A stretch of DNA of 12,685 bases, from positions 1 to 12,685 of the IMG/VR virus record IMGVR_UViG_2634166457_000024. One strand, written 5' to 3'. A program made the position numbers. Of the stretch, positions 3,001 through 6,000 are shown piece by piece. This stretch comes from a virus. Taxonomy: Duplodnaviria; Heunggongvirae; Uroviricota; Caudoviricetes. Within the stretch, counting starts at the first letter, position 1. Each line of letters begins with the position of its first letter.

Positions 3001-6000
3001 CTTTCGTAACGCGCATTTATGATTTCCTGCAGGATGGTTATCTCTGTAGGCGTGCCGAACTGCACACCAACCTCATCGATGATCAGCAGGTCCAGTGAGG
3101 CGAAATGAGCGAGAACTTCATCCTCGGTACGCTCTGAATTGTGGCGCCAGGTATTTTTCACAGCGCGGGTCAGTCGCATAACATCCGTAATTTCGACGGT
3201 CGCCTGGTGGTGGCGAATAATATTTTTTGCCATTGATACAGCCAGATGATTTTTCCCGGTACCACAATTGCCAATCATGACCATGCTGGTACCCGCAGCA
3301 AGACACTTCTCCCATGAACCGGCATAGCGCCGACAAGCCTCAAGATTTCTCTGTGCGTCAGCATTCACCGCCTGATAATTCTCAAACTCGCAGTTCTGGA
3401 AGCGGCGGGCAATACCAGCCCTGTCGAGTAATTCATGAACTTTCAGGATGCGTAACGCCTCCTGTACCTGATCCAGCTCATTCGCAATGCAGGTCGGGCA
3501 ACCAGACACCCGTTTGATGGTTTCCCCACGAACATCTGGCCCTTTCAACACCAGACGTGTGTATTTCCCGTGTTTCTCACACTCAGCAGTATCCTCGCTT
3601 GTCAGCCAGTGTTCACAGCGCCACGGACGCTTCCCGACACGGGCAAACTGCATCTCCTCCTCCAGTTCCGCCCTGCGGTTGAGCAATTGCGCTTTGTCGT
3701 GTTGTGCGTAGTGTTTTTTTAACTGTTCAAACATTGTTCATCACCTCGAAAAATCACCAGTTGAAGTTCGTTGAACCGTAGTCCTGCTCACTGAATCCCG
3801 AGATCGGGAGGCCGGTAGTTCGCCCACCTCCGGGAGCGGCTGGCTGTTGCCAAGATTCCTCGAAGTGACGATCGGGTCCAAAGAACGTCGCAGCCTGCTT
3901 CACGAACTGTGTGCCGATATTTCCGGTAGCTCGTACCCAGGCGGCATACCGCTTCACGCCATCAAGCATGGTCTCCGGTTTTATTCCCTCCCTGATACGG
4001 GCTTTCCAGGCTTTGAAGGCTGCTGACTTGGAATTGCCACCAGCACGTTTGGGGTATTCCTGCCAGGCCTGTTCAGATTCCGGTGAATATTCCTGTCGGG
4101 CAGAACGCGCTGGTGCAGACGCGTCAGCGGATGCGCCAATAGTTGATTCATTGACTGGTTCTTTGACTGGTTCAAAAGAGTGACTGGTTCTGGGTGAATC
4201 TCCTGCACTACCCCCTGGTGCAACTCTTGCACCACCTGGTGAATTTGCTGCACTAGGTAGTGAATTATTTGCACTACCACCTGGTGAATCTTTTGCACCA
4301 TCAAGACGAAGAAGATAAATATTGCTCGAGTTGCCTTTTTCACCTTTCCGGGAAACTTTTTTTACCAGTCCCGATTCACAAAGAGCCGTAATATGATTCA
4401 TCACAGAACGTTTGCTAATCTCGCACTGATCAGCAATATGCTGATAGCTGGGCCAGCACTCGCCCTGATCGCTGGCATTATCAGCCAGCTTAATCAGAAC
4501 CAGTTTTCGCAACGGATTTCCCACGCGAATTTTCATCGCTTTCACCATCAGCTCCATGCTCATAACACACCTCCCAGGCGTTTAAACATTTTCCCGGACT
4601 GAAACACTGCCAGTGGATAGCTAAGGGTATGAGTGCGTCCCTGAACCTGACAGACAACCTTCTGGCTTTCTGTATTGACCAGACAAACCCGCAGAACGTG
4701 ACCGTTGCTGATGGTGAACCACTGCCCCACACAGGGGCAACGGTTGTATCGGTGATACAGGGAATTAACGACGCGGCGAATCATGGGTGCACCTCCCATT
4801 GATTACGGCGGAAAGCGGTGTGACTGAGGCTGATTTCTGCCTCATGGAATGCTTCAATGCAGCTCTCGTAGTACCGCATTGTGCGCAGACTTAACCCAAG
4901 CTGAAGCATCATCAGACCATCAAGGGTGATGTAATAACCATGCAGAGAATCACCATAGATGTGATAAGTACCCGGTATGAAATTGCGGATAAAAAATTCG
5001 CGCGAGCAGTTCAGATACTCGATTTTGTCGACGATGTTCTGGTGCATGCGCTTGAAATGACAGGCAACATGCAGAGAGAAAATAACGGCCTTGCCGTTGA
5101 CGGATTCGATTTTCAGGTATGGGGAAGTTGGGACTGTAGCCATGATGGCAGCCTCCGTATGCAATGGATAACTTCCACCACCGGAAACGCCAATTTCGCT
5201 GGTGGTGAACTGAGCAGGGTTGGCGTAACCGGCGCATACGGAAACCGGCGCACCTTTCGGTGCCCCCACCCAGCCCACCATAATTTGGGTATAGCTGAGT
5301 TGTAGCAACAAAAAAGACGCTAACGCGCCAATTGTCGCCGTATGCAATTCCAGGACGCCAATCCCGGCACCCGCTTTATAAGGTGCCTGAACAGTGTAAC
5401 GTCCCGAAATTGCAGAATCAATATTTAGGCTTGAAACATTCATATGCTTACTGGTATTTTTGTTGACGTTCTTGGATTCTTGGGCCTGCTTTATGCAGTT
5501 GCCTGTATCAACGTTGAGCGAGCCGGGTCACTACCCGGCTTTTTTTCACCGCTGCCAACCAATAACCTGAAATAACCCCATTTTCGGGTGATACCAGCGA
5601 GTCCCTCGCGGTTCTGCTTCCTCCATAACCCGATAAAAAGCAGCCATAAACGGTTCCACAGCAACAATTGCGCGACGTGATAACAATCCGTCCGGCGTCA
5701 TAAACTCGTGGGTATCTGTAGGAAGTTGATAAGCGTTCACCAGATTGCGGCATTTATCATCTGACAAACCGGTTTTTGCTTTCAGCTGGCGATATCCGGC
5801 ATAGCCCTCACGAATGTTGCCCTTTTTGATTTGCTCAACTGTTTCGGCAACATGGCTGACTTTTTCTTCCACCTGAGTGATCCGTTTCTGCTGACGAACG
5901 GCTTCAAGAGCCATCGCTGCAACCATTTCGATTTCGCTCATTGGCTTACGGATCTGTTCTTCCAGTTCGCGCCAGCGATCTACCAGGCGAGCAGTGAATT

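Follow-up and report, generated by a model that had tools for sequence, protein, structure and literature searches.

A candidate small antisense RNA gene on the plus strand between Rha and isrK in a lambdoid prophage

What is a strong intrinsic terminator doing inside the early region of a temperate phage, on the strand that carries no annotated gene? The question is raised by IMG/VR virus record IMGVR_UViG_2634166457_000024 (positions 1 to 12,685, all 12,685 nucleotides (nt) of which are hereafter called the window), a lambdoid prophage of Escherichia coli in which a hairpin and a run of T residues face against the early operon, in the spacer between a Rha-family regulator gene and the RNA gene isrK. 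The original prediction, made from the sequence alone, took this hairpin to end a short plus-strand RNA antisense to the early operon, comparable to the OOP RNA of phage lambda. We estimate a probability of roughly 0.55 that positions 5431-5546 represent a self-contained small RNA gene on the plus strand, a candidate cis-antisense small RNA (sRNA) directed at the Rha-isrK early transcript. The parts of this candidate gene are as follows.

5431-5436, plus strand: −35 box TTGAAA, from a promoter scan and conservation
5452-5460, plus strand: extended −10 element TGgTATTTT (TG at 5452-5453, TATTTT at 5455-5460), from a promoter scan and conservation
5466-5546, plus strand: predicted RNA of ~80 nt, its start (5466-5468) placed by the position of the −10 box and its end in the T-run
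5468-5477, plus strand: conserved 5' motif GTTCTTGGAT, kept across three sequence classes
5481-5505, plus strand: stem-loop SL1 (9 bp, UU bulge, loop UUUAU), from folding
5513-5519, plus strand: conserved linker GTTGAGC before the terminator
5520-5546, plus strand: intrinsic terminator (stem 5520-5528/5533-5541, loop 5529-5532, T-run 5540-5546), from sequence, scan and folding

Read from the sequence, the plus-strand hairpin consists of GAGCCGGGT (5520-5528), the loop CACT (5529-5532) and ACCCGGCTT (5533-5541). Its core, AGCCGGGT/ACCCGGCT (5521-5528/5533-5540), is the perfect 8-bp, GC-rich Watson-Crick stem with a 4-nt loop and a T-run that had originally been described, and one further G·U pair extends it to 9 bp, of which 6 are GC pairs. 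The T7 run occupies 5540-5546, and its final T is base 1 of the Rha stop codon (TCA at 5546-5548 on the plus strand, TGA on the minus strand). A GC-rich stem-loop placed directly before a U-run is the sequence signature of an intrinsic (Rho-independent) terminator, and it is found here on the plus strand. On the minus strand A7 precedes the hairpin and CGCUCAACGUUGAU comes after it, with no U-run 3' of the stem, so that the hairpin is not a terminator for the operon strand, as had also been proposed. In both strands of the window, this is the sole perfect GC-rich stem of at least 8 bp followed by at least 6 T, a combination present in none of 300 dinucleotide shuffles of the window, and it took rank 1 in a terminator scan of positions 4500-7500. 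The calculation of folding energy that had been suggested as a check gave −15.2 kcal/mol for the plus-strand hairpin on its own (−15.1 kcal/mol for that of the minus strand, the DNA being palindromic) and −33.6 kcal/mol for the 107-nt region, with z = −3.2 and no equal among 200 shuffles.

Upstream of the hairpin, the promoter proposed for it, TTGAAA at 5431-5436 and TATTTT at 5455-5460 with an 18-nt spacer, lies exactly where it had been placed, and the TG that precedes its −10 hexamer makes it an extended −10 promoter. It is the sole sigma-70-like match within the 3 kb from 4500 to 7500. The RNA predicted from this start folds as a 5' tail, SL1 and the terminator at −30.7 kcal/mol, versus −25.8 kcal/mol for the minus strand. 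The linker before the terminator also contains, in the sequence class to which the window belongs, a perfect 10-bp palindrome (TCAACGTTGA, 5508-5517), which is weaker in the second class and absent in the third.

These three classes emerged from a survey of related prophages. The segment 5400-5600 is present in ~292 of 5426 complete E. coli genomes, with identity bands near 99%, 88% and 81%, and the element is found in Stx2-converting phages too; E. coli SE11, O103:H2 12009 and MS8345 are among the strains that have it. Representative copies align into three divergent sequence classes, A (which includes the window), B and C, between which the middle of the RNA has strongly diverged, with insertions and deletions. 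Against this background, the −35 box, the TGn −10 element, the 10-nt motif and GTTGAG(C/T) followed by hairpin and T-run are kept across classes. Among 95 copies, corresponding to 23 unique ones, the −35 box reads TTGAAA in 22 of the 23 and TTGGAA in the remaining one; all 23 carry the TGn (TGgTATTTT in 16, TGaTATCTT in 7), an 18-nt spacer and a T-run of 6-8. The string GTTCTTGG is invariant in the three classes while its flanks and SL1 diverge, and in classes A and C the conserved 5' motif begins 7 nt past the −10 element, where transcription would start. The −35 hexamer also overlaps codons of the 'ash' reading frame, and since it is unchanged while the surrounding amino acids swap (NVSSL versus IISRP), constraint at this site points to selection on the DNA or RNA sequence and not on the protein. 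The original prediction had named a hairpin without conservation in related prophages as grounds for abandoning the idea; the hairpin is in fact kept in three diverged classes. The plus-strand open reading frame (ORF) at 5444-5575, by comparison, is not conserved: class C is without its ATG and class B has an early stop. A metagenome scan with the pre-terminator motif returned 121 matches, of which 1 was a real copy, and no new classes.

Conservation extends to structure, and structure distinguishes the two strands. At the SL1 site, classes B and C build their stem-loop from different sequence, and all classes share the arrangement of tail, SL1 and terminator. In classes A and B the plus strand folds 5-15 kcal/mol better than the minus strand; in class C both strands are equal. 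One hairpin variant (L004) carries a compensatory change from U-A to C-G, and independent C-to-U changes opposite G, one in L027 and one in L056 within a second hairpin family, give G·U on the plus strand and A·C on the minus strand. SL1 of class B likewise has G·U on the plus strand and A·C on the minus strand. With one MAFFT structure line shared by all classes the stems were out of register, and a covariance-model alignment was used instead. This model (R1) matched 25 copies at 65-123 bits. The resulting alignment comprises 19 distinct copies and has 97.6% of its cells paired, a value reached by none of 500 shuffles, with three pairs changed on both sides; controls with slid partners reached 37-68% pairing. 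The same pairs taken on the reverse complement were 88.4% paired with 5 G·U cells, versus 32 G·U cells on the plus strand. The alignment is fitted to the structure, and the inner SL1 stems of classes A and C are still misregistered or under-aligned in it. Conserved structure with compensatory change and without a conserved ORF, the pattern expected of a small RNA gene, is present here among related copies in a structure-fitted alignment. The ~80-nt plus-strand RNA antisense to the early operon thus stands as a candidate, backed by conserved promoter geometry, hairpin and T-run, by the strand bias and by the lack of an ORF.

The surroundings of the element suggest what such an RNA might act upon. 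The relevant features are these.

5546-6295, minus strand: Rha-family regulator gene of the early operon, Pfam Phage_pRha
5310-5386, minus strand: isrK RNA, Rfam RF01394, 61.2 bits (gathering threshold 50)
5198-5285, minus strand: C4 antisense RNA, Rfam RF01695, 80.7 bits (gathering threshold 45)
5421-5393, minus strand: predicted isrK promoter, read from the sequence (TTGATT 5421-5416, 17-nt spacer, TACACT 5398-5393)
Elsewhere, minus strand: genes for a cro-like protein, an O-like initiator, a DnaC-like loader, a DnaB-like helicase, RusA and a Q-like antiterminator
Elsewhere, plus strand: an S24 cI-like repressor gene and, further along, the integrase gene

The start predicted from TTGATT/TACACT is 5386, the first base of the Rfam isrK match, and this promoter region is invariant among relatives. 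It diverges from the candidate plus-strand promoter, the two −35 boxes being 9 bp apart. The original prediction had placed the hairpin between the Rha stop and the start of a 220-amino-acid (aa) ORF: the Rha side of this description is correct, while the other side was misread, the ORF (4781-5443) holding both isrK and C4. In relatives, the PGAP annotation gives a 'Rha family transcriptional regulator' and an 'ash family protein' with no RNA genes.

The coding status of this neighbouring stretch is itself ambiguous. Pfam Phage_ASH covers residues 16-108 of ORF 4781-5443, exactly over isrK and C4, and a Rha-like domain follows. The frame that begins at 5443, crosses isrK and C4 and reaches the Rha-like domain stays open over at least 213 codons in 120 of 124 unique copies, and other frames across the isrK/C4 stretch close early; positions 5198-5386 may be RNA genes and coding region at once, or Phage_ASH may be a translation of RNA genes. 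In phage phiP27 the ATG of that frame overlaps the upstream stop (ATGA). Because the frame is open in 120 of 124 copies and begins with this overlap in phiP27, translation of read-through transcripts has to be reckoned with, which would provide a target of the kind regulated by the sar RNA of phage P22. The isrK-C4-'ash' module also occurs in tandem, two or three times at exactly 656-bp spacing, in some viral contigs (L019, at 9912, 10568 and 11224; L015; L016; L125).

While the features of the sequence, how they are conserved, the bias towards one strand and the lack of coding potential are shown here, transcription of the element, its exact ends and each step of the following mechanism are inferred. 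A sigma-70 promoter with an extended −10 element would start transcription at ~5466-5468 and yield an RNA of ~80 nt, in which a stem-loop specific to each lineage lies between a conserved, single-stranded 5' motif (GUUCUUGGAU) and a strong terminator ending on the Rha stop codon. The gene would be read in the direction of the early (cro-Rha-replication) operon, with the isrK promoter behind it, and because of this orientation its RNA would match the Rha-isrK spacer of every early-operon transcript with perfect complementarity. By analogy with P22 sar on arc-ant and lambda OOP on the cII mRNA, it may pair with the read-through transcript, which could expose that transcript to RNase III or 3' decay and could limit translation from the ATG at 5443, which lies 24 nt past the end of the duplex. 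The isrK/C4/Rha-like antirepressor module would then be run by its own promoter and RNAs instead of by read-through.

The element belongs to a junction and not to either of its neighbours. With the C-terminal coding end of Rha as anchor, a plus-oriented hairpin was found right after the stop codon at all 104 viral contig loci, 86 of which carry the window family and 16 an unrelated family (GGCCGGT-TTTCTCT-GCCGGCC followed by TTTCTTATTT) that lies ahead of a BRO-N antirepressor gene, as in phage phiP27. The element as a part of the isrK module was considered and rejected: where isrK lies behind other genes (DUF4222, BRO-N and others) it abuts them, with no hairpin. A general feature of Rha genes was rejected as well, as 13 distant homologues (from Yersinia, Providencia, Proteus, Atlantibacter and others) are without the hairpin and their downstream gene abuts. 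At the phiP27-type junction (L013, 2330-2420; also L008), a promoter of the form TTGATT-18-TGaTATTGT sits within the opening codons of the BRO-N gene and predicts an antisense RNA of ~58 nt across the BRO-N ribosome-binding site, a sar-like layout; this second element had no match among Rfam families.

Comparison with known RNAs places the window element nearest, in layout, to P22 sar. In the annotated P22 record, arc ends at 15022 and the 70-nt sar is on the opposite strand at 15021-15090, with its terminator at 15021-15058 and its promoter at 15097-15125, inside ant, which starts at 15091. Both RNAs are small (70 versus ~80 nt), have two stem-loops and lie on the opposite strand of an operon leading to an antirepressor unit. 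Both have their terminator on the stop of the upstream gene (arc 15022 in P22; here the end of the T-run at 5546 is base 1 of the Rha stop), cover the whole spacer and have their promoter, here a candidate one, at the start of the downstream unit. In sequence, the window element has no similarity to sar (global alignment z of 0.4). More broadly, sar, the phiP27-type RNA and the window RNA show no mutual similarity (z of 0-2.3), and model R1 had no match in the P22 locus or in phiP27. The two also differ in reach, since sar covers the ribosome-binding site of ant whereas the window RNA, predicted to start at 5466-5468, would stop 24 nt short of the ATG at 5443 and leave the putative ribosome-binding site at ~5447-5455 outside. 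The downstream unit here moreover opens with RNA genes (isrK, C4) and not with a plain ant gene. The phiP27-type element, predicted to cross the BRO-N ribosome-binding site, would be the closer functional copy of sar, and the window element is most likely analogous to, and not homologous with, P22 sar.

The resemblance to lambda OOP holds in part. OOP is an antisense RNA of ~77 nt with its own promoter and intrinsic terminator, in the rightward early operon and convergent with PR (PMC12197685). The window element shares this predicted size, the possession of its own candidate promoter and its terminator, and convergence with the early operon of a lambdoid phage. The genomic context of OOP is a different one: at the cII-O junction, it overlaps ~50 nt in the 3' part of the cII coding sequence, an overlap that leads to decay dependent on RNase III, whereas the window RNA overlaps its upstream gene, Rha, at the stop codon only and has Rha and isrK as neighbours. 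The likeness to OOP that had been proposed is therefore retained for size and convergence and given up for context, where the geometry of P22 sar fits.

Two further groups of phage RNAs are pertinent. The order isrK-STnc1160-orf45-anrP has been described for Gifsy-1 (PMC4825925). The antirepressor control module known from P1/P7 C4 RNA and Gifsy-1 IsrK/STnc1160 directly adjoins the element in the window, where isrK, C4 and a Rha-like/AnrP-like domain match the Gifsy-1 order. The candidate element itself is on the other strand, upstream of the isrK promoter, where the Gifsy-1 neighbour is antQ. Prophages of enterohaemorrhagic E. coli (EHEC) encode the anti-sRNAs AgvB and AsxR as well as HnrS and StxS (PMC4104026, PMC13502914). 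These resemble the candidate, as predicted, in being short, in having their own promoter and intrinsic terminator, and often in combining one conserved and one variable part, but lie downstream of PR' (EcOnc anti-sRNAs) or among late genes (HnrS) and not in the early region.

If transcribed, the element would represent an undescribed small RNA family, present in ~5% of complete E. coli genomes and among them in Stx2-converting phages, and a third RNA layer at a locus already known for RNA control. Its position is where the early operon meets the isrK/C4 antirepressor switch, which influences prophage induction. Its transcription would further imply that sar-type antisense RNAs between a regulator gene and an antirepressor unit arose repeatedly from unrelated sequence. 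Current annotation ('ash family protein', no RNA genes) conceals three RNA elements at this site.

Several observations weigh against a cis-antisense RNA gene. A single sigma-70-like match in 3 kb is not above chance, as shuffles average 3.7. Across 4227 Rfam families, also at permissive thresholds, no plus-strand family scored above noise, the top scores being SorY at 17.8 bits (gathering threshold 111) and AS-pc01 at 16.5 bits (gathering threshold 79), and a literature text search for literal strings of the element's sequence gave no match. Copies within a class are close relatives, so the covariation stems from few independent events, in an alignment that is itself structure-fitted. The predicted duplex stops 24 nt before the ATG at 5443 and covers no ribosome-binding site, unlike sar, and the Shine-Dalgarno match at this ATG is poor. 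An RNA acting purely in cis does not need a conserved 5' motif, and the presence of one does argue for some sequence-specific role. Distant Rha genes are without any such element. Finally, a hairpin-only scan recovered the same stem sequence in many unrelated phage contexts; by itself the stem is a generic terminator and not diagnostic, while the full element is restricted to the Rha junction.

This last point leads to the leading alternative, a terminator that serves solely as an insulator, stopping stray antisense transcription that arises near the isrK promoter from entering Rha and colliding with the early operon, with any short RNA as a by-product. The wide occurrence of the stem in unrelated contexts would be expected on this account, as would the plus-oriented terminators of unrelated sequence at the same junction and another plus-strand terminator inside the operon, after the bssS insert. 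It leaves unexplained why promoter geometry, the 5' motif and SL1 pairing are conserved across diverged classes, and we regard it as possible, if unlikely.

Slightly less plausible still is that the RNA is made and acts in trans through its conserved 5' motif, in the manner of Hfq-type sRNAs, on the start of the prophage's own repressor mRNA or on host mRNAs. A 5' seed, a stem-loop and a terminator with U7 are the typical architecture of an Hfq-type sRNA, which the predicted RNA fits, and every class retains GUUCUUGG unaltered while the remainder of the body has diverged, a conservation that cis pairing does not require. The stretch UUGACGUUCUU (5463-5473) is moreover exactly complementary to the cI-like gene at codons 2-4 (7118-7128, ATG at 7115). 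When RNAduplex was run with the RNA against all gene starts of a locus, the start of the repressor ranked 1 of 44-46 in class A loci with the MKNVKN repressor. It also ranked 1 of 20-31 in class B loci with the unrelated MLNARIQ repressor, whose start (AUCCAAGAAUG) is complementary to the conserved motif and pairs over 13 bp across the AUG. In all other pairings, however, that is, for classes A and B with other repressors and for every locus of class C, the commonest class, the repressor ranked 12-38, and the substitutions that separate the MLTTG repressor from MLNARIQ make the pairing weaker. A transcription start at 5466-5468 would leave just 6-8 of the 11 nt inside the RNA, and the complementarity was noticed after the fact, at a rough p of ~0.04 over ~10 pairings. 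As judged from these sequence comparisons, the repressor start is not a target maintained across lineages. The narrower proposal of an 'RNA antirepressor', in which the conserved 5' end would pair with the start of the prophage's own cI-like repressor mRNA and lower repressor synthesis, appears very improbable; if true, it would add a third RNA regulator to the antirepressor cluster, acting directly on immunity and matched to immunity types. A shared operator of the cI/cro region and the divergent promoters was also considered and rejected, the sole common word being an 11-mer (TTGACGTTCTT) in the cI coding start.

Little also speaks for a role of the hairpin on the minus strand, which we judge very improbable, whether it would stabilise the Rha mRNA at its 3' end, serve as a processing site in it or act as a weak terminator in reverse orientation. 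The hairpin directly follows the Rha stop codon, a nearly equal hairpin forms on the minus strand (−15.1 kcal/mol), and the strands of class C fold equally well. Against this, no U-run follows the hairpin on the minus strand, the conserved T6-8 run would be without purpose there, and the changes in L027, L056 and class B SL1 give G·U on the plus strand but A·C on the minus strand. The mRNA stability or processing element that the original prediction had offered as its own alternative is thus disfavoured by the strand comparison (97.6% pairing on the plus strand versus 88.4% on the minus strand).

That the early transcript has a nut-like (boxA/boxB) antitermination site here is highly improbable: the minus strand does present a GC stem with a 4-6-nt loop and then CGCUCAAC, resembling boxA (CGCUCUUA), but these parts stand in the opposite order to those of lambda nut sites, the loop varies in sequence between classes and the other operon arm in the window has no second copy. 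Scarcely credible is a small hydrophobic protein of 43 aa from the plus-strand ORF at 5444-5575, a frame that is present in the window but was rejected as a candidate because it is not conserved (no start codon in class C, an early stop in class B) and has no Pfam match, and which moreover contains the terminator and has its ATG upstream of the predicted RNA start.

The terminator stem also marks a second, unrelated conserved element. In L328, L344, L333 and ~30 other viral contigs, the same stem is used by the element ...CATAATGGCCCC(~25 nt)GTTGTTGAAAGAGCCGGGTTGCAGCCCGGCTTTTTTGTGCCTGCGATTCAGGC, just upstream of a divergently oriented gene start, and this element may be another small RNA or a leader. 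Within the early operon of the window itself, a bssS-family gene (6373-6621, plus strand) is inserted between Rha and the cro-like gene and faces opposite to the operon. The plus-strand terminator at 6653-6681 belongs to this insert, and the SE11 relative has a different gene at that position.

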